Below are positions 19,342 through 48,452 of a DNA stretch of 64,000 bases, in pieces. The first letter of the stretch is position 1; each line of letters opens with the position of its first letter. The stretch lies in the IMG/VR virus record IMGVR_UViG_3300042904_000405, positions 1-64,000 of that record. One strand, given 5' to 3'. A program made the position numbers and the translations under genes. The stretch comes from a virus. Below the pieces are notes generated by a model, which did not search any database, was not told the DNA's origin, and saw nothing but the letters and a program-made list of their open reading frames with translations.

Positions 19342-20848
19342 GTCGCTCGAGCACCTCGAGCGCATCGCCCTTCCCTCCAGCATCGGCCGGTCGCTAGCCC
19401 CTCGGCTGTGGGGAGCGGGCACCGAGTACCGCGTCGACCCGTGGCTTGCCATGGCCGAGCAGGCTGTCGTGCCAGCGTTCCTGGACAAGACCCAGGAGTC
19501 GTTCATCATGCTGAACGTCCCGCCCCAGGTCGGCAAGTCGACCTTCGGCGGCGAGCTGCTCCCGTTCTGGGTGCTCGGCATGTTCCCCGAGACGCGCATC
19601 ATCGTCATCACCTACTCGGACGACTTCAGCAAGGGCCGCGGCGCCACTGTCCGCAACATGATGGAAGCCTTCGGGCCTGAGCTGTTCGGCGTCGACGTCG
19701 ACCCCGACTTTCGCTCCGCCGGCGACTGGCGCATCAAGGGGCACCGCGGCGGGATGCTCTCGGTCGGCATCGGCTCGCAGATCACTGGCCGTTCCGGCGA
19801 CCTGATCATCATCGACGACGTCATCAAGAACGCCGAGGAGGCGGCGAGCCCGACCGCCAAGCGCAAGCACCTCGCAGAGTACGACGGCACGATCCGCACC
19901 CGCCTCCAGCCGGGCGGCATGATCCTCATCACCGCCACGCGCTGGGCCGAGGACGACCTGTCCGGCGAACTGCAGACCCGTCAGAAGGACCCCACGTACT
20001 TCGGTGATCGCTGGGAGGTGTACTCCTTCCCGGCCATCGCCGAGCCCGAGGACGAGGACGACGAGGAGTGGGTCGACCCCCTCGGCCGCGCCGAAGACGC
20101 CGAGCTGCAGTGCCGCTTCCCCGAGGGCCACTTCCACCGCGTCCGCCGCTCGATCGACGCCTTCACCTTCAGCTGCCTCTTTCAGCAGCGCCCATCCGTC
20201 CGCAAGGGGGGCATGTTCCCCAAGGCGAACTGGCGCTACTACGACCCCGACGACCGCCCGTACATGGATCAGTTCATGCGGGTGTGGGACCTCGCCGCCA
20301 CCGAGAACGGCGGCGACTACACCGTCGGGTCGAAGGTGGGCAAGACGCGCGACGGCGAGTGGTACGTGCTGGACGTCGTCCGCAAACGGCTCAACGCCAA
20401 CGACGTGCGCGAGCTGGTCTGGGCGACCGCGGTCGGCGACGGCTTCCTCACCAAGATCCGCTTGGAGGAATCACGGGACGGCGCCGGCAAGAGCGTCGTT
20501 GAGTTCTACAAGGCGGATCCGCGCTTCGCTGGGTACGACATCAAGGGCACACGCGCCGAAGGCCAGAAGGAGAGCCGGGCCACGCCCTACTCCGCACTCC
20601 AGAACGGCGGCCACTTCCACCTGCCCGACGGCGCTCCGTGGGTGAAGGACTTCGTCGACGAGCATCGACAGATGATGGGCGACGGGCGCAAGCCGCGGCA
20701 CGACGACCAGATCGACACGGTCGCCTACGCCGTGCTCGAGATGGCCGACTCCGGCCCTGTCACCATCCTCGACCCGCACGACTACACCGACCAGTTCACC
20801 GAGAAGGCCATGAACGACATCTGGCGCCGCATGGGCGTCATGCGGTGA
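19325..20848 (+). CDS. terL: Terminase large subunit
   Basis: Walker A PPQVGKST, ITGRSGDLIIIDD Walker B, TRWAEDDL, nuclease WDLA..GDYT and HDDQID. Confidence 0.95.
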   Translation: MSATTESLEHLERIALPSSIGRSLAPRLWGAGTEYRVDPWLAMAEQAVVPAFLDKTQESFIMLNVPPQVGKSTFGGELLPFWVLGMFPETRIIVITYSDDFSKGRGATVRNMMEAFGPELFGVDVDPDFRSAGDWRIKGHRGGMLSVGIGSQITGRSGDLIIIDDVIKNAEEAASPTAKRKHLAEYDGTIRTRLQPGGMILITATRWAEDDLSGELQTRQKDPTYFGDRWEVYSFPAIAEPEDEDDEEWVDPLGRAEDAELQCRFPEGHFHRVRRSIDAFTFSCLFQQRPSVRKGGMFPKANWRYYDPDDRPYMDQFMRVWDLAATENGGDYTVGSKVGKTRDGEWYVLDVVRKRLNANDVRELVWATAVGDGFLTKIRLEESRDGAGKSVVEFYKADPRFAGYDIKGTRAEGQKESRATPYSALQNGGHFHLPDGAPWVKDFVDEHRQMMGDGRKPRHDDQIDTVAYAVLEMADSGPVTILDPHDYTDQFTEKAMNDIWRRMGVMR

Positions 20849-21341
20849 CGAAGGCCTCGTGCTCGGCTGGCTGGAGGAGCCGGTCAGGATGATCGAACGT
20901 CACCACGCCAGACCAGACAGTGACCCGCACGCCCCCGACGGTCCGCCAGTGTGGCACCATCAGGTATGGCGCCCACTGCGTCGGGTAGGGAGAGATGGCC
21001 CCGTCAGGATCGGTGGGCCACGCCAGGAAGACGGCGTCGTCCTCGCCGGGTAGGGCAGAGTTTGCCCTGAAGGCAGGGTGAGCCTCGAGCCGGGCGAGCG
21101 CCCTGCTGATGCGGATGACCGCTCGATGCAGCGAGCCCGAGGCCCGGCCCTTCCGCTGTCCGTAGGCGTTGAAGGCCTGCGCGCTCAGGTCATCCAGCAG
21201 CAGACGCCAACCGATCGGCGGCATCGGCACGTCGATCATCACCCGGCCAACAGGCTCTCCCCTGTCCAGCCACGCCTTCGCCGCCGAGGTGGCGTGCGCA
21301 TAGCATGCCTTGAGCTGGGAGTCAGTGAGGCGAACGATCAT
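20838..21341 (-). CDS. Hypothetical protein (last gene of leftward arm)
   Basis: ATGA-coupled start MIVRLTDSQ. Confidence 0.6.
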   Translation of the reverse strand: MIVRLTDSQLKACYAHATSAAKAWLDRGEPVGRVMIDVPMPPIGWRLLLDDLSAQAFNAYGQRKGRASGSLHRAVIRISRALARLEAHPAFRANSALPGEDDAVFLAWPTDPDGAISPYPTQWAPYLMVPHWRTVGGVRVTVWSGVVTFDHPDRLLQPAEHEAFVTA

Positions 21342-21493
21342 GGGGAATCGGACGGCGGTTCGGTAGCGCAGCTCGGGTTGGGACACTGGCGCTGTTCGCC
21401 GTACGGCCAGTCCATCGTCTGATCGACCACGACCCAGCCGACACCTCCACACTCGGGGCAGTTGAACGGCGGTTCGGTAGGGCTACTCGTCAT
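21338..21493 (-). CDS. Small CxxC protein bounded by two EPP repeats
   Basis: MTSSPTEPPFNCPECGG...CPNPSCATEPPSDSP. Confidence 0.7.
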   Translation of the reverse strand: MTSSPTEPPFNCPECGGVGWVVVDQTMDWPYGEQRQCPNPSCATEPPSDSP

Positions 21494-21690
21494 CGCTGGC
21501 ACCTGCCTGTTTCGTTGCATCGGCGCTCGCCGCAACGTTCGTCGAGGAAGTCCGCCAGGGGGCAGCCGTGTTCGTGGCGGTCGCCGGGTCGCACATCGGC
21601 GGTGCATGTGGCGCATCGGTAGTGGCCGGTGAGTTTCCGCCACCAGCCCCACGCGCTATCGGACGGCGGTTCGATGCCCGGCTCAGGCAT
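21490..21690 (-). CDS. Small Cys/His protein with N-terminal EPP repeat
   Basis: MPEPGIEPPSDS...CATC...HEHGC. Confidence 0.7.
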   Translation of the reverse strand: MPEPGIEPPSDSAWGWWRKLTGHYRCATCTADVRPGDRHEHGCPLADFLDERCGERRCNETGRCQR

Positions 21691-21973
21691 CGCTCACCAT
21701 CCATTGCAGGTTCCAGACACGGTCTGTCGATGGGTCGTGATGGTCGCGAGAGCCGTCGTGGAAGTGGCGAGCGGGTAGATCGCAGGTGTAGTGCACCGCA
21801 CCTGACGTGATCCGCGCCGGGCAGACCGGCCACGTATTGCACGGACATCCCGGAGCGGGATCGAGCAGCGGGCCACCGCCGCATTCCGGGCAGGTGGACT
21901 CGGACTGGACGTGATGCGCCGCCATGTCCGGACATTGCCCGACCGGCACCCCGTGCGAGCAATCGATAGTCAT
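21683..21973 (-). CDS. Cys/His-rich small protein
   Basis: MTIDCSHG..CPECGG..CPC..C..C..H..H; SD GGAAGAGG. Confidence 0.6.
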   Translation of the reverse strand: MTIDCSHGVPVGQCPDMAAHHVQSESTCPECGGGPLLDPAPGCPCNTWPVCPARITSGAVHYTCDLPARHFHDGSRDHHDPSTDRVWNLQWMVSDA

Positions 21974-22212
21974 TCCCCGCCCTCTTCCTCGTCGGTCCCC
22001 GATCCGTTGCAGGCGGCGCAGACGCTGACAGTGAGACCCATGCGATCCCAGCAGCGGCCGAGCCCGAGGCAGTCCTGACACGGCACGGTGGCGGAGTTGA
22101 ACGGCGGTTCGGTAGCCCGTTCCCGCATCGCCTTGCGCTTGCACTCACACCCGCCCTGGAACAGGCAGTCAGGGTGGCGCTCGCACCTATTGAACGGCGG
22201 TTCGGTAGCCAT
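21970..22212 (-). CDS. Two-module Cys-rich protein with two EPP repeats
   Basis: MATEPPFNRC...ATEPPFNSATVPCQDCLGLG...CAACNGSG (DnaJ-type CxxCxGxG). Confidence 0.7.
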   Translation of the reverse strand: MATEPPFNRCERHPDCLFQGGCECKRKAMRERATEPPFNSATVPCQDCLGLGRCWDRMGLTVSVCAACNGSGTDEEEGGE

Positions 22213-22346
22213 CACAGGAGCGCCAGTCCGACCATTGTCCACCACAGTGCGAGCATGATGAAGCCCGCCAGGCAGACGGCTACGAGTAATCCGAGCGCGG
22301 CTTCGTCGTCGCTATCGGACGGCGGTTCGGCAGAGGGGTCAGGCAT
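22212..22346 (-). CDS. Small membrane protein with N-terminal EPP repeat (44 aa, not in ORF track)
   Basis: MPDPSAEPPSDSDDEAALGLLVAVCLAGFIMLALWWTMVGLALL; TGATG coupling both sides. Confidence 0.65.
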   Translation of the reverse strand: MPDPSAEPPSDSDDEAALGLLVAVCLAGFIMLALWWTMVGLALL

Positions 22347-22633
22347 CACAGACCATCCAGCCTCATGCGAGGGTCGAGCCGGCGCGGGGGCTGATTCCGC
22401 TTGAGGTAGCCGTGGAGTCGCTCGTCGAATGCCTCGTCCTCCTCAACCATGTTGAAGATGGCATCGCAGAGCTGCCATGCCTCCTCTCGGTTCTGCTCGG
22501 CGAGCTGCTCAAGGCTGAGCCCGCGCTCGCCCAGAGCCTGGAGAACGAGGGCGATCTCTGGGTCGCTGGCCCGTTCGTTGACCCAAGCGATCATCTCGCC
22601 GAGCGCGTTGCGCTCCTCGTCGATCTCGCTCAC
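22346..22633 (-). CDS. Hypothetical protein
   Basis: Coupled ORF with strong codon bias. Confidence 0.65.
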   Translation of the reverse strand: MSEIDEERNALGEMIAWVNERASDPEIALVLQALGERGLSLEQLAEQNREEAWQLCDAIFNMVEEDEAFDERLHGYLKRNQPPRRLDPRMRLDGL

Positions 22634-29250: not shown

Positions 29251-31684
29251 ACGGCCTCCACGCACTGTGGCTTCAGGTACATCGGGTTGCCGAAGCGTGG
29301 CTGCGGGATGTCCAGCTTGACGGCCACCCTGTCGCCCTTGGCCGAGTACACCGTCACGCCGGTGGCGCCGTCGAGCACCTTCGGCCGGATGTTCGTCAGC
29401 CGCACCCGCGTGCCCACCGGCAGCGACGCGTTCCTGGCGTTCAGCGCCCGGGTGACCAGATCCTTCAGCTCGCCGAGCTGCTTGGCGTCGGCCTCGCGGC
29501 TGATGAACTGGTCGACCTCTTCGTACGTCATGATTCCCCTTTCAGGTTGTGCTGGGTCGCCCAGCAGTTGGTGCGGGGCTTGTTGACCTCGCCCTCGCAG
29601 ATGCATTGGTCGATGGGGATCGTCTCCACCTTCGGCTCCTCATCAGGCAGCCCTTTGACGCAGGGGAAGACCTTGAACGTGTCGAGGTAGTTCTCCCACT
29701 TGCCGTAGTGAGGGTCGCCCTCGTTGTCGGCGATGATGTCGGACCACGTCGTCTCAACGAGCTGCCGCAGGCTGGCGTACTCCTCGTCGAGCGACTCGGG
29801 GTTGCCCCGGTACGGCCGCCGGCGCAGATCGGCACAGCCGGCGCGATGGACGTGCCACTCGCCGCCCATTCCGATGTTCGGCCCGGTGACGTTGAGGATC
29901 ATGCGTCGTGTCCTTCCTCTCTCAGGCAGTTGCCCTGTTGGTCGATCTCGTAGCCGCACTCCCCGCAGCCGTAGGCCTCGCCGCATCGACCGCACGTCGG
30001 CGACACCGTGTCGCCCTGCATGATCAGCTCCAGGTCGCTCTCGGTCCACGGCTCGTGCTTGGTCCAGAACTGGCATCCGTTGCACCAGAACGTGCGCAGC
30101 ACCTGCGTGCCGTCCTGGAACACCTGGAGGTCGAACATCGCCTCCAGCCGTCGTGCTCGCTCGGGCATCAGCACTCCCTCATCAGCTCTCGGAGGCGCGC
30201 GTCGCCGGCCGAGGAGAGCTGCTTGCCGTAGCCCTCCTCGTACTTCTCCACGCCGAACTGTTCGATCGCGGGGGTCAGGCCGCCGAGCTTGGCGATCTCG
30301 TCGCAGACCTGACCGCGGAACTGCGGCCAGACCATGTCGAGGGCGAGGACGTCTTCGTCCGCGGCTGCGACCGTGGTCGGCGGCAGCGTCCGGTAGACGA
30401 TCTGCGGCTCACTCTTCTGGCAGGCGACCAGGCCCAGCAGCGCGATCGGGATGATGAGCAGTCGCTTCATGATCTGTCAGCCTCCAGCTTGTGTTCGACC
30501 CACTCGGTGTAGCCGAGCACGGTGTCACCGTTGGCGACCTCGTACTGCCAGTCGGCGAGCGTGTAGTCGTCGTGTTCCGTCATCTGTTCCTCCACAGGTG
30601 GTCGATGTCTCGCATGTGCTCCTCGTACTCCTGCTCCTCGGTGTAGGGCTCGATGTCGGGGATCGTGTACTCGGCGCGGCCTCGGACGTGCAGCTCCTCG
30701 GTGCCAGCGCAGAACGCCGAGTGCGTCCCGATCGACACCCAGTCGTACTCGTTGGTCAGGTCGTTCCACCGCACGTCGAGGTGGTGCTTGCACGTCAGGC
30801 AGATGATCGGGTGGTGCGCCACGGTTCCTCCTCAGCAGCTGGCGTAGCCCATGAACGCCCACTGGCCGTCGCCGGCCGGGACGCACACGGCGCTGCCCCA
30901 CTTGTCGTCGAACACCTCGGCCATCTGGCGGAAGTTCGGGATCTGACGCAGCTGCGTGATCGCCTTCTTCGCATCGATCTCCCACTGGAGGGGCGGCGTG
31001 ATCTTCGGCTTCTTCCACTTCAGCGCCCTCGTGATGACGGCGTTGTTCGTGTCGTACTGCGGGCGCCGCGGTTCGAACGGCTCCGCTGGCGGCGTGTCGT
31101 CGACCGGCACCCGGCAGGTCACCGTCTCGGTCACCTTCATCGTGACCGTGCGGGTGTAGGTCGCCGTCTTGTGCAGCGGCTCCGGTGGGCGATCATCCAG
31201 CACCTCGTAGCTCGATGCGCTGAGGGCGTTGAACAGCTCCTCGGCTGTCATGCCTTTCGGCAGCTGGTAGCACACGAAGCCCGCCTTCTCGGCGATCGTC
31301 CCCGTGTAGCCACCGTGGCCGAACTCGTGCGCCGCCTCCCGGTAGGCGTTGTCGAACGCCTCCGAGGCGGTCTTGCCCTTGCCGATGCTGAAGAACGTTG
31401 TTGCTCCCATGTCATCCTCCTGTTGTGACAGCTGACAGCTCGATCACCCAGTAGCCCCAGGGGAAGCGCTGCTCCTCCGCCCACCCGTCGGCCACCTCGG
31501 GATCGTCGAACGGACCGATGTGGTTGAAGCCATCGACCGGCGTGCCGGTGATGACGATGTGCTGGGCAGCGCCCGGGGCGCGCGTCAGTTGGATCACCTC
31601 GTCGTTCAGACGGATGACGGCCTGTCGCCAGGTCTCGTCGTCGCCCGTGTTGGGGATCGGCGTGTCGCCGCAGTCGTGGTCCAT
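29247..31684 (-). other. Run of small early genes (29247-29531, 29528-29902, 29899-30168, 30168-30470, 30467-30583, 30580-30822, 30832-31410, 31412-31684)
   Basis: Coupled ORFs with GGAGG SD sequences. Confidence 0.65.
30168..30470 (-). CDS. Lipoprotein
   Basis: MKRLLIIPIALLGLVAC lipobox. Confidence 0.75.
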   Translation of the reverse strand: MKRLLIIPIALLGLVACQKSEPQIVYRTLPPTTVAAADEDVLALDMVWPQFRGQVCDEIAKLGGLTPAIEQFGVEKYEEGYGKQLSSAGDARLRELMREC

Positions 31685-32571
31685 CACGTTCCTCCTGTTG
31701 TCACTACGAACCCGCTCTTGCCGATGAGCTGGCGGGCCCGACCCTTTGCGCTCAGGTCTCCGATGACGCCCTCCTGGAACATCCACTCGTCGGTGAGGTC
31801 GGCGTCGACGACGTTGGCCCAGTAGACGTTGCCGCCGAGCCAGATCGGCTCCGGCTTCTGTCCCTTGCGACGAGACGTGACGACAGCGACTGAACCGCCG
31901 CGCTCCACGAAGTCGAAGACGGCGTGCTGATCGCTGTTCTCGTTCCAGCTGTACGCCAGGCGGTAGGTCGCGCCGACCCAGCCGTCGGTGTCGAGGACGA
32001 ACGGGTCCTTCGTGTACCCGTAGCTGAGCACCCGCGTCCCGAGCGTGTCGCCGTTGGTGAGCGACGGCAGGATCAGATCCCACCGGACGTCGCTATTGAC
32101 GTTGGGCCGGAACAGGATGTTCGTCTTCCAGTGCCGGGTCCAGGCGGCTTCCAGCTCCCAGCCCAGCAGGAAGGCGAACGCCCGCGGCTGCTCGCAGAGG
32201 AAGTCCACCTTCGCCCGGCGCGCCTCCTTGACCGCTTCGAAGGAGCCGTTCCCGTTGTCGAGGACGCACACCTTCTGACAGTCGCCGGCATGCGGGCAGG
32301 CGTTGACGATCAGGCCACGCTTGACCCGTGTCGTCGTGTGCTGAAGCGTGAGCCCGTAGCTCGGCACCTTGCCCTTCAGCAGCTTGTCGTTGTCGGCCGG
32401 CCAGGTGAGCAGTCGCAGGGCGGGACCGGTGAAGCCTCGCTTCTCCCGGTACGCCTGGTACAGCTTCATCGCCAGGCCTCGTTCGTGCCTGCTGGCATGC
32501 GAGGCTCCCCGGACGAAGTACTCGTCCATGGCCGCCGCGTGCGGCAGCAGGTGGTCAGTCAGCGTCTTCAT
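31684..32571 (-). CDS. GP88-like phage protein (Cys-cluster, radical-SAM-like)
   Basis: NACPHAGDCQKVC...ARRAK...FRPNVNSD...YGYTK pattern. Confidence 0.7.
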   Translation of the reverse strand: MKTLTDHLLPHAAAMDEYFVRGASHASRHERGLAMKLYQAYREKRGFTGPALRLLTWPADNDKLLKGKVPSYGLTLQHTTTRVKRGLIVNACPHAGDCQKVCVLDNGNGSFEAVKEARRAKVDFLCEQPRAFAFLLGWELEAAWTRHWKTNILFRPNVNSDVRWDLILPSLTNGDTLGTRVLSYGYTKDPFVLDTDGWVGATYRLAYSWNENSDQHAVFDFVERGGSVAVVTSRRKGQKPEPIWLGGNVYWANVVDADLTDEWMFQEGVIGDLSAKGRARQLIGKSGFVVTTGGT

Positions 32572-45627: not shown

Positions 45628-45959
45628 CACTGCCACCCTTGGTCGACCTTGGCGAGCGAGCCGTCGACGTAGTCCTCGGACACGGCGATCTGCTCGGCCT
45701 TGGTCGCCTGCCACGGCTGGTCGGCGTAACGCTCACCGCCGAGGCGGTCCCAGTAGTAGTGGTTCCACATCAGGCCGCCGGAGAACGTGCCGTGGCTGTT
45801 CGTGACGGGCCGGTGGGACCAGTTGCCACCTGACTCACATTCGGCGATCGCATTCCAGTCGACGGTCCATGTCTGTGACCGCTGTGGCTGGCACTGGCCG
45901 GCGCAATCGGTGAGCAGAGCCACCGGCAAGGCTGCGATCGCGAAGAGACGAGTGTTCAT
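45621..45959 (-). CDS. Resuscitation-promoting-factor (Rpf)-like transglycosylase, secreted/lipoprotein
   Basis: VDWNAIAECESGGNW...FSGGL.W...W...GG..YA..P.QAT.AEQIAV.E...QGW.C. Confidence 0.88.
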   Translation of the reverse strand: MNTRLFAIAALPVALLTDCAGQCQPQRSQTWTVDWNAIAECESGGNWSHRPVTNSHGTFSGGLMWNHYYWDRLGGERYADQPWQATKAEQIAVSEDYVDGSLAKVDQGWQCY

Positions 45960-46004
45960 TGGTTGGTTCCTCCATGGTTGCCGCCCGGCTTCGGATGCGA
46001 CTGT

Positions 46005-46555
46005 CTAGCAGCCAGCGCCCTTCTTCCAGAACGCGGCCTTCACCGTCGGGTAGGTGCCGTTGAGGCTCATCTCGTAGGACTGCTCCATGTAGCACGTCCG
46101 CCTGACGGCATCCCGGGGGTGGCAGTACGGCACGCCGCCGATCGACGCCTCTTGCTCGGGCATCACCCGGCCGCAGCGCCCACAGATGCGCTCAACCACC
46201 GTTCACCCGCTCACGGATCATCTCGACGACGCGGGGCTCGCTGAACAGCCAGACGAACACCTCGGCCCACTGCTGCTTCGGGAACGTGGCCCGCAGCTGC
46301 TCGAGCTTCAGGTGAAGGTCCGGGTCGGCGCGGAAGGTGACGACGGGGCGCTCAGCCATCTTCGTCCCAGTCGTATGGCTTCCAGTTGTCCGCTGACTCC
46401 GGCCGCCACTCGATCTCTTCGCGCCGCCACTCCTTGTACAGCATGTCGCCGGACCGCATGCGGGTGACCGCCTCACGGCCATCGCTGGTCTCACACCACA
46501 GCGAGCCGTCGGGGGCGAGCACCCGGAACCAGCGTCCGCGTTTCCAGTCAGGCAC
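46005..46555 (-). other. Three small genes (46005-46199, 46192-46359 RHH-like, 46352-46555)
   Basis: Coupled ORFs. Confidence 0.55.
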
Positions 46556-47568
46556 CGGTCACCACCTTCCATGTTCCGTCCGGGCTGACCCGCACGATGG
46601 TGTAGCTCTGAGCGAACAGCGATGTGCGCGCCGTCTCGGGGTCGTTCGCTCCCCACCACAAGCGGCCGTCGCGATCAACCACGTAGAACATGTCGGCGAC
46701 CTGTTTCGGCGGTTCGGTAGCGGGGTCAGGCATTGGCGATCGCCGCCCTCAGAGCGTGGACGAGTGACGAACCCTCGCCCGTGCTCACTACGCCGCGCTT
46801 GTCCCCAATCACCACCGCGGTTCCGTGAGTCGTGATGGCGTGCGGTATCCGCACCGTCGCTCCGCTGCCGAGCACGACGTCGAGTAGATCGTCAGTTGTG
46901 AGCAGGTCGGCACAGTCTGGACAGAGCGCGAACCTCAGAGGGATGAGGTCCGAGCAGCGGCAGGGGCTATCGGACGGCGGTTCGTTAGCTGGTGCTGGCA
47001 TAGCCGTCCATCCATCGCTCGGCGATTCGGTAGCAAGGGTCCAGACAGAAGTGCCAGACCTGTACGTCATCGGCGCACCATCCCATGTCGGCCAATGGTC
47101 GGCGCGTGCCGCAGATGGCGCAGATGAACGGCGGTTCGATGGCAGGCGCAGGCGGCGGACTGCTCGGCCACGGCGGGCACTTGCTCACGTCGGTCCGCGG
47201 GTTGCTAGCCATCGGCCGATTCTTCGCACGGGCGACAGATGCCGTCAATCAGTTGCTCCCGCGACTCGCAACGCTCACAGACACCGCTGCGGCCCTCGCG
47301 GAAGTAGCGACGAGTGTTTGGTGGGAGGTGGGCGAGGGGGTCGCTATTGAACGGCGGTTCGTTAGTCACGGTCGGCCTCCAGCCATCGCCCGATGGCTGG
47401 GAGTCCGACTCGGACGACGGGCTCATCGGTGTCGAGCACGGCTCGCGCCTCGTCGCTGATGGACGGCGGTTCAGACGCCTGATCGCACGGCCACGGTTCG
47501 CCGCACGTCGCACATCGGACGATGGTCGCCGGGCGATGGCGATTGAACGGCGGTTCATCAGCGGGCAC
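46548..47568 (-). other. Five small EPP-motif genes (46548-46733, 46726-47001, 46985-47211, 47205-47369, 47362-47568), four with CxxC
   Basis: MPDPATEPPK, MPAPANEPPSDS, ..AIEPPFIC, MTNEPPFNS, MPADEPPFN..ASEPPSIS. Confidence 0.7.
46703..47557. repeat. EPP-repeat cluster 2: six sites at 46703 (degenerate), 46971, 47125, 47348, 47460, 47544
   Basis: Same CGGCGGTTC core, orientation and reading frame as cluster 1. Confidence 0.92.
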
Positions 47569-47803
47569 GTTGGGCCTCCAGCGTCATCTCAAAGAGCGCC
47601 CGGCGGCTCTGATCAAGGGCGTCGTGCTTGGTCCAGAAGCGACGGTGGAGGATCTCGGGTTCGGGGTTCCCGTGGGTCCACACACAGACGCACGAGGTCC
47701 AGGGCTTCCACTTCCACCAGCTGTGGTGGAGCAGGAAGTCGACCCAGCCGTCGGCGATCTCGTATCGGCCTATCAGCTCGTCGCGCTCTTCGAATCCCCG
47801 CAT
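47558..47803 (-). CDS. Trp-rich hypothetical protein heading the EPP cluster 2 operon
   Basis: TAGCAT-6nt-ATG on minus strand. Confidence 0.6.
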   Translation of the reverse strand: MRGFEERDELIGRYEIADGWVDFLLHHSWWKWKPWTSCVCVWTHGNPEPEILHRRFWTKHDALDQSRRALFEMTLEAQRAR

Positions 47804-48059: not shown

Positions 48060-48452
48060 ATGTACCCGTTCAAGATCTACGAGTGCGCCTACTGCGGCGA
48101 TGAGGCCACCGAGAACGATCACGTCACGCCCCGCTCGCGCGGCGGCAGACTGACCGTCCCATCTTGCGCCCCTTGCAACCGGTCCAAGTCCCGCAAGGAC
48201 GCCGACGAATGGCTGGCGCATCAGCTGATCCGCGACGCCCGCTGCGATATCGGTGACGATGCGAGCCGCCGTCTGGTGGAGATGTTGCTCCGCCTCCCGG
48301 CCCTCGTCGACGCTGGGATCATCGACATGGGCTGCGTCGGCGTCGAGCTGGCGTCGGCGCGAGAGGAGGCGCTCCAGCTGGCGCTCAACCTCGAGCTGGC
48401 GCTGACGACCCTCAACGCTGCCGTTGAGAATGCTCGGGCGCTGGCCTCATGA
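48060..48452 (+). CDS. HNH endonuclease
   Basis: CAYCG..ENDHVTPRSRGG...VPSCAPCNRSK. Confidence 0.9.
   Translation: MYPFKIYECAYCGDEATENDHVTPRSRGGRLTVPSCAPCNRSKSRKDADEWLAHQLIRDARCDIGDDASRRLVEMLLRLPALVDAGIIDMGCVGVELASAREEALQLALNLELALTTLNAAVENARALAS

Follow-up and report, generated by a model that had tools for sequence, protein, structure and literature searches.

A short in-frame repeat bounding single-gene cassettes in accessory arrays of uncultured soil phages, and its candidate role in cassette exchange

Phage genomes are mosaic, and only in a few cases is it known which sequences channel the joints. In lambdoid phages, short boundary or linker sequences at gene junctions steer mosaic joints between functional units. 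Integron cassettes, with their attC and attI sites and IntI integrase, form one-orientation arrays of single genes that have no expression signals of their own and a diverse cargo. In T4-type phages, the promoter-early stem-loop (PeSL) cassettes described in passages of PMC2839356 consist of small non-essential open reading frames (ORFs) flanked by repeats that recombine. Passages of PMC3203893 describe the start-associated sequence (SAS) of Cluster K mycobacteriophages as a 13 bp asymmetric motif, present in one orientation ahead of genes belonging to different families in the non-structural half of the genome; according to the same passages its function is not known and a regulatory role has been proposed. 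SAS and the extended start-associated sequence (ESAS) also occur in Cluster EF Microbacterium phages, as reported in part of PMC7302621. Here we describe a short repeat that recurs in two arrays of small genes in the IMG/VR virus record IMGVR_UViG_3300042904_000405 (hereafter G000; 72,403 bp), the window analysed being its first 64 kb. On balance, we lean towards reading this repeat as a conserved in-frame linker that bounds single-gene cassettes and serves as the site of their recombination, in what would be hypervariable accessory arrays.

G000 has a G+C content of 67% and an estimated completeness of about 95% (CheckV). The window contains 13 exact copies of CGGCGGTTC against 1.39 expected from 100 dinucleotide-preserving shuffles, none of which reached 13 (the shuffle maximum was 4). 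Twelve of the 13 copies share one strand and fall into two clusters of six, array 1 (plus-strand starts at 21353, 21467, 21664, 22102, 22195 and 22320) and array 2 (plus-strand starts at 46707, 46975, 47129, 47352, 47464 and 47548), and the 13th is on the opposite strand. An exact search of the remainder of G000 (64001–72403) found no copies of CGGCGGTTC, so the whole genome holds the same 13. The coding genes lie on the minus strand; read on that strand, the motif is GAACCGCCG (E-P-P), and the pattern across copies is GAA-CCG-CYG-TYC (E-P-P/L-F/S). In G000 the copies read GAA CCG CCG, then TYC, then RAY or ATC (E-P-P-F/S-N/D/I), and each of the 12 clustered copies falls within an open minus-strand ORF, in the E-P-P frame. 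The longer unit GAACCGCCG-TYC-RAY gave 14 matches with up to two mismatches, against 2.18 expected, and it fits 11 of the 12 clustered copies, the exception being the copy at 46707, which breaks off after GAACCGCCG. Exact repeats in G000 reach 21 nt within an array and 19 nt between the arrays.

A first-pass annotation, made from the letters of the window, had reported six copies of an invariant motif in array 2, all in the same strand and frame. This is borne out, although each of its coordinates was 4 nt lower, an offset that fits a slightly longer repeat unit. It had also taken the motif to be clustered and above background, and the count of exact matches against expectation agrees. Its statement that no copies lie outside the two clusters missed the copy at 31892–31900 on the opposite strand, which is about the chance level, and otherwise holds genome-wide. 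The palindromic copy that it described (TGAAC-GGCG-GTTCA) is real, at 47545–47558, but copies of the TCC type are not palindromic.

Conservation of the linker acts at the level of the nucleotide sequence and not of the peptide, because GAA is fixed despite its low usage in the genome and because variation falls at second, not third, codon positions. GAA CCG CCG is found in all 12 clustered G000 copies. In the 26 long genes of G000, GAA makes up 84 of the 521 Glu codons (16%) and CCG 326 of the 604 Pro codons (54%), and the only two E-P-P tripeptides in these genes both use GAG. An alignment set of 118 copies from 27 sequences, each with no more than two mismatches from GAACCGCCGTTC, was used to examine variation. 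The variable sites are second codon positions, with C in 68 and T in 50 copies at one (Pro/Leu) and T in 83 and C in 34 at the other (Phe/Ser), whereas the four third codon positions deviate in just 9, 1, 1 and 1 of the 118 copies. Variants of the first codon are GAT, AAA, GGA and CAA, and hardly ever the synonymous GAG. The linker consensus is GAACCGCYGTYC RWY WSC, and many copies are preceded by one of three recurring leaders.

These figures bear on the alternative that the conserved element is the peptide, an N-terminal E-P-P-F tag that might mimic the C-terminal tip of actinobacterial SSB or serve as a signal for targeting or processing. The SSB tip functions as a free C-terminus, unlike the motif, which is N-terminal or internal. 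Several copies do encode xDEPPF (PADEPPFN in ORF 47362–47568, and MTDEPPFN and MADEPPFI in G001, a further array-bearing IMG/VR record), and the mycobacterial SSB tail, as given in a passage of PMC7847540, ends in ...GGGDDEPPF. However, the GAA CCG codon choice is fixed against the genome's own preference, the frequent changes are the radical swaps Pro/Leu and Phe/Ser, and EPPF is encoded at only about 37 of 143 listed sites. The peptide reading is thus already disfavoured, and we regard it as very improbable.

The arrangement of the genes around the linker is also regular. Both clusters sit in leftward-transcribed runs of small ORFs that overlap one another in the pattern ATGnnTGA or TAA. Adjacent linkers are a median of 157 nt apart (79 adjacent pairs), and in 56 of the 79 pairs the ORF that opens at one linker stops no more than 30 nt upstream of the next. 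Relative to the next linker, the stop most often ends at −1 (19 pairs), followed by −10 (13 pairs) and −7 (12 pairs), positions that correspond to the three leader types. The other pairs comprise nine with in-frame read-through, ten with room for another gene and four that are arranged otherwise. A cassette is thus made up of one small ORF body together with the start codon and leader used by the gene that follows. The minus-strand ORFs of the arrays are supported by their codon-position composition, in which the G+C content at third codon positions (GC3; 0.71–0.84) exceeds that at first positions (GC1), and GC1 mostly exceeds that at second positions (GC2). In the long competing plus-strand ORFs at the arrays, GC2 is equal to GC3 or near it. 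The GC3 of the array ORFs is lower than that of the core or long genes (0.88–0.93; regions 20838–22633 and 46352–47803 compared), which fits foreign or fast-turnover DNA.

The cargo of the arrays is almost all unrelated ORFans. In a BLASTP comparison (E ≤ 1e-3), 62 of 99 cargo ORFs were singletons, and only three of 85 were assigned to a Pfam family (Dam twice and Mom once), to which PHROGs adds little. The DNA-modification functions Dam and Mom have an anti-restriction role. None of the G000 array ORFs reaches a curated Pfam cut-off, and only weak zinc-finger-like matches were seen. The observation in the first-pass annotation that the two arrays have the same junction and different cargo is confirmed, and the cargo is unrelated. 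It could be supposed that the arrays consist of tandem paralogues from a single small gene family with a conserved N-terminus, as many of the cargo proteins are small and Cys-rich and a few similarities were found within arrays, mostly nested copies inside one ORF. This explanation is barely credible given the proportion of singletons and the presence of Dam and Mom in the cargo; moreover, similarity between arrays or contigs stops at the junction and does not extend along the full length of the genes.

Two relatives, G001 and G002, both IMG/VR records, were compared across their entire lengths and have segments in common at 67–76% identity. They also share three cassettes of 164–170 nt at 97.6–99.4% identity. 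Each of these starts and ends inside a linker copy, and their order is permuted, being D-E-F in G001 and E-D'-x-F in G002. The leader stays with the upstream cassette while the downstream cargo changes, and the two arrays sit in different genomic neighbourhoods. A contig from another sample (L283) is 99.8–99.9% identical to G001, save for a partial copy of cassette D, about 120 nt long, at the linker of cassette F. The cassette at L283:805–949 is chimeric, joining the first part of D to the last part of F with alignments that overlap by 27 nt, so recombination also occurs inside cargo. As among relatives carrying PeSLs, G001, G002 and L283 differ with breakpoints in the repeats; the breakpoint comparison covers these three sequences, and for G000 no close relative was found.

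Where a cargo family is found in at least two contigs, its neighbours there are unrelated (families 3, 7, 8 and 9, and L290 within family 0). Between G000 and the other contigs, only the junctions are common (20–53 nt, 77–100% identity), the exceptions being the cargo at 21349–21461, shared with L290 at 78%, and a transglycosylase-like gene at 45676–45848, shared with L305 at 71%. A contig from an independent groundwater run contains the 46548–46733 cargo at about 90% identity, with 98 different nucleotides and then a linker upstream of it, where G000 has two other cassettes; this evidence is a single contig of low depth. The exchange of modules between relatives that had been suggested from the window was therefore found, with cassettes exchanged, reordered and replaced at breakpoints in the motif. 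The accompanying suggestion that the same mechanism feeds both loci is partly supported, by the shared junction and by linker-bounded exchange in relatives, but the data single out no particular feeding mechanism.

If the repeat is such a linker, a cassette would span the distance from one linker to the next and consist of an ORF body whose first codons are the linker. It would then carry a ribosome-binding stretch, start codon and short leader for the next gene, as well as its own overlapping stop, which would end 1, 7 or 10 nt before the next linker. Each cassette would borrow its start codon from the cassette upstream, and a crossover anywhere in the linker would recreate two intact, translationally coupled genes. 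We infer that exchange proceeds by recombination across the short shared sequence, either the 12–18 nt core or about 36–40 nt where the leaders match. The machinery could be supplied by the host or by unrecognised recombination functions of the phage, during co-infection or when a phage meets a resident prophage. Turnover of a shared pool of cassettes would keep the linker uniform, and selection would retain only those products that preserve both genes, as the design of the linker would guarantee.

The positions of the linkers relative to start codons can be followed from the parts of the arrays in G000, listed here with array 2 first.

47558–47803, minus strand: first gene of the leftward unit, 81 aa, lacking a linker; its stop and the start of the first cassette overlap
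47362–47568, minus strand: cassette ORF, 68 aa, with CxxC and two linker copies; no family found
47542–47556, minus strand: linker copy GAACCGCCGTTCAAT, the palindromic copy, 12 nt past the GTG start of ORF 47362–47568
47458–47472, minus strand: linker copy GAACCGCCGTCCATC, in frame and internal to ORF 47362–47568; nearest in-frame start 96 nt upstream
47205–47369, minus strand: cassette ORF, 54 aa, Cys-rich; no family found
47346–47360, minus strand: linker copy GAACCGCCGTTCAAT, 9 nt past the GTG at 47369; the TAA of the upstream gene ends 1 nt before the linker
46985–47212, minus strand: cassette ORF, 75 aa, Cys-rich; no family found
47123–47137, minus strand: linker copy GAACCGCCGTTCATC, inside ORF 46985–47212; nearest in-frame start 51 nt upstream
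46726–47001, minus strand: cassette ORF, 91 aa; no homologues in a search of 5.8 billion proteins
46969–46983, minus strand: linker copy GAACCGCCGTCCGAT, 18 nt past the ATG at 47001
46548–46733, minus strand: cassette ORF, 61 aa; homologues elsewhere at 73–81% identity lack the linker
46707–46715, minus strand: truncated linker GAACCGCCG followed by AAACAG, 18 nt past the ATG at 46733; leader ATGCCTGACCCC in common with 22346
21347–22328, minus strand: array 1, six linker copies, as 15-mers at 21347–21361, 21461–21475, 21658–21672, 22096–22110, 22189–22203 and 22314–22328
22212–22346, 21970–22212, 21683–21973 (no linker), 21490–21690 and 21338–21493, minus strand: small ORFs of array 1
31892–31900, plus strand: stray copy of GAACCGCCG, outside the arrays and antisense to the minus-strand ORF 31684–32571

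The gene start ATGCCTGACCCC, which the first-pass annotation had found at both 22346 and 46733, is real. For nine of the 12 clustered copies, an in-frame start codon lies 9–18 nt upstream. The other three (47472, 47137 and 21361) are internal or C-terminal, with the nearest start 96, 51 and 54 nt away, respectively, and the ORFs that contain them look like fused cassettes. ORF 47362–47568 is accordingly best read as two such cassettes, given its internal linker at 47458–47472. Array 2 is adjoined by a divergent HNH endonuclease gene (48060–48452), about 250 nt from the first gene of the array. A weak HNH match in PHROGs was also seen for one of the 85 cargo ORFs elsewhere, and a link between HNH and the linker is not established.

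The closeness of most copies to a start codon is what would be expected if the motif were a start-associated cis signal recognised, as DNA or as mRNA, by a phage or host factor, with cassette exchange as a by-product. Such a signal might act as a translational operator or enhancer, or might regulate one temporal class of small genes. The nucleotide-level conservation in one orientation and the confinement of the motif to arrays of small non-structural genes are consistent with this, and SAS provides a precedent (in the passages of PMC3203893 and, for Cluster EF, PMC7302621 noted above). However, the distance from motif to start varies, from 3 to at least 24 nt, and a quarter of the G000 copies are not at a gene start at all. 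Antisense pairing with 16S rRNA, using a Streptomyces 16S as a stand-in, was no better for the motif (7–8) than for shuffled motifs (mostly 8–9), and no candidate binding protein common to the array-bearing records was found. Windows around the junctions showed no more folding than their shuffled versions (mean z −0.27, n=109), and an RNA hairpin or sequestration of the start codon was rejected on this ground. A start signal alone would also leave unexplained both the conserved stop, start and leader geometry and the presence of 98–99% identical cassettes in genomes that are about 70% identical. We consider this explanation a tentative possibility. A resemblance of the antisense strand to a tRNA T-arm was rejected, as the 3′ half of the arm is missing.

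Alternatively, the motif may be the recognition or crossover site of a dedicated, site-specific or template-directed system for cassette capture, resembling an integron that operates in reading frames. The crossovers in G001, G002 and L283 lie within the 8–18 nt core even where the flanking leaders differ, which would be consistent with such a site, and the core is nearly invariant among phages whose terminases are only about 38% identical. Arrays also end in ‘empty’ linkers that are followed at once by a stop (21347–21361 in G000, and in G003, L336 and L307), and they are found at different genome positions in related phages. On the other hand, G000 has no tyrosine or serine recombinase match despite 12 clustered copies and an almost complete sequence, and no gene family was found consistently beside the arrays; an all-against-all BLASTP comparison of the nine larger sequences revealed no shared family next to them. 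The site lacks the inverted-repeat architecture usual for recombinases, the TCC-type copies not being palindromic, and the crossover points range from within the core to just past its 18th base. Such a capture system therefore seems unlikely. A broader form of the idea, a cassette system acting at the level of translation, either an in-frame integron with an unrecognised enzyme or replication-linked capture across distant phages, beyond mere microhomology, is rather improbable, though a little less so. It would accommodate cassettes without a start or ribosome-binding site (RBS) of their own, a 12–18 nt in-frame crossover site and a cargo that includes anti-restriction genes. Overall, we see a modest chance that a dedicated mechanism lies behind the repeat-mediated modular shuffling.

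The reading of the repeat as a recombining linker, which we prefer, has several points against it. The conservation counts draw partly on copies that were retrieved by searching for the motif itself; this bias explains part of the uniformity of the linker, but not the contrast between second and third codon positions. That the core is near-invariant across very distant phages counts against purely passive recombination, and recombination at a repeat does not prove that recombination is the purpose of the repeat. G000 has no detectable integrase, resolvase/serine recombinase, RecT or YqaJ. No G000 match to the tyrosine recombinase family PF00589 was found at E ≤ 0.01, in a search that was positive in 14 of 14 control genomes, and a Pfam search of the 54 larger G000 ORFs revealed nothing recombinase-like. 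Genes for integrase-family proteins, a resolvase and a YqaJ-like nuclease are present in G001, G002 and G003, the last being a third IMG/VR record with an array; temperate phages would be expected to carry them.

The best evidence of exchange comes from three metagenome assemblies, two of which derive from a single sample, and assembly artefacts at the shared cassettes cannot be fully excluded. Against an artefact, the linker is shorter than the usual assembly word sizes and the copies of a cassette differ by 1–2%. In the G001/G002 events, no more than about 8–14 nt is common to the parental junctions, which is short for ordinary homologous recombination, and a site-specific enzyme would fit better. 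Finally, no recombinant or excised circle was observed for the G000 arrays among assembled contigs. The proposal in the first-pass annotation that recombination between the arrays would excise about 25 kb is only a logical possibility; the interval contains dozens of genes.

The linker was then sought in other genomes. Cultured phages in INPHARED gave no match to either array (blastn, near and distant modes), and two junction queries of 39 and 36 nt gave chance-level matches only (best E 0.04, most 2–7). The G000 TerL is at most 33% identical to those of cultured phages (tblastn), and no kin of G000 were found in IMG/VR using TerL or ORF 20838–21341. One-strand arrays were detected in three IMG/VR records, G001 with seven copies, G002 with five and G003 with four (strand counts 7/0, 0/5 and 0/4), and the reversed control pattern gave none. 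A scan of IMG/VR for single copies of the 14-mer returned 118 stretches, nearly all background, and most of the two-copy matches were rejected as arrays, being unrelated Gly-rich or tandem repeats on the other strand. In metagenome contigs, a two-copy scan returned 88 loci, of which 23 have at least two same-strand copies of the extended 18-mer, three of these being the same records as G001–G003. By this same measure, three of 160 viral loci and none of 86 loci in species-representative genomes qualified. The arrays of relatives carry 4–8 copies. An unrelated viral contig of 53% G+C (L103) contains, at 226–260 and 461–495, two copies of a hairpin-forming element that includes the same 9-mer, each placed immediately before a Shine-Dalgarno sequence and start codon; the element probably belongs to another repeat family.

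G000 is present in soil metagenome runs. Soil runs X4 and X10 also contain contigs identical to it, so this phage recurs across samples. These contigs are short (within 45872–47776), come from at least two further studies, and none spans the arrays. The likely hosts of these uncultured high-GC soil phages are Actinomycetota, to judge from the genes for WhiB, GP88 and Rpf-like transglycosylase domains in G000, the Lsr2 gene in G001–G003 and a tRNA fragment in two of these. The fragment is a 44 nt stretch that is 100% identical between L177:13682–13725 (G001) and L180:16652–16695 (G002) and comprises the variable arm, T-arm and acceptor of a tRNA. With up to two mismatches, this 3′ fragment recurs in 127 of the 401 genomes sampled from the phylum to which a Streptomyces record belongs (123 of 397 after dropping four genomes flagged as unpublished). 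It looks like an attP core and, because integrase-family genes are also present, G001 and G002 are probably temperate and integrate in the same actinobacterial tRNA gene.

Other features of G000 were recorded. Amongst its 54 ORFs of at least 90 aa, one encodes a Peptidase_C14 caspase domain (E 5.6e-23), which is unusual in a phage, and others encode a WhiB-like regulator, a YspA/SLOG-family protein and several glycosyltransferases. Beyond the window, a region of about 6 kb (66,032–72,194) contains no ORF that passes the composition filter; it could be a gene of unusual composition or non-coding DNA.

We found no description of the motif strings or of such a linker in the literature, the search covering material other than subscription journals and supplementary files. 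If the preferred reading is true, the linker would be a translated connector, and since every cassette would use the start signals upstream of it, any reshuffling would still give expressed genes. That the linker is common to phages with almost no other DNA similarity points to a shared pool of tiny soil-phage genes. It could serve as a searchable flag for collecting hundreds of unknown small phage genes from metagenomes, may mark natural positions for the insertion of foreign genes, and offers a testable case for the minimum shared length that drives modular exchange.

None of the PeSL, SAS, integron and lambdoid boundary systems has an in-frame shared sequence or a dependence on the start of a neighbouring gene. 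The PeSL cassettes are similar in that short repeats flank small, mostly ORFan genes clustered in variable regions (hyperplastic regions for PeSL), and in that, in the passages of PMC2839356 cited above, recombination of the repeats explains how close relatives come to differ by insertions, deletions and replacements. PeSLs are intergenic and combine a sigma-70-like promoter with a terminator stem-loop, whereas the linker lies inside the ORF, provides its first codons and gives no fold signal, and the linker genes overlap without intergenic space. Mini-circles have been shown for PeSLs, according to those passages, while here only assembled contigs were compared.

By analogy only, the linker is like SAS in being short and asymmetric, near-exclusive in orientation, tied to the starts of unrelated genes and sometimes overlapping the upstream stop. 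Unlike the linker, SAS, GGGATAGGAGCCC (or GGGAAAGGACCCC), is described as lying 3–7 bp upstream of the start, at the position of the RBS, and contains AGGAG. The linker has a different sequence, lies 3–24 nt downstream of the start and is translated. The passages of PMC3203893 cited describe no exchange of cassettes at the motif.

With integrons, the arrays share the single orientation, the single-gene cassettes, the dependence on upstream signals and the diverse cargo. They differ in that G000 has no integrase, the cassettes need an upstream start codon and ribosome-binding stretch rather than a promoter, and the junction is in frame. In contrast to the attC hairpin, the core is 12–18 nt, only the TTC-type copies have inverted arms, of 4–5 bp, and there is no fold signal. 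Like the boundary sequences of lambdoid phages, the linkers are short shared sequences at gene boundaries that would channel recombination; unlike them, they are copies of a single near-invariant 12–18-mer, up to eight to an array, that lies within coding sequence and is found in otherwise dissimilar phages.

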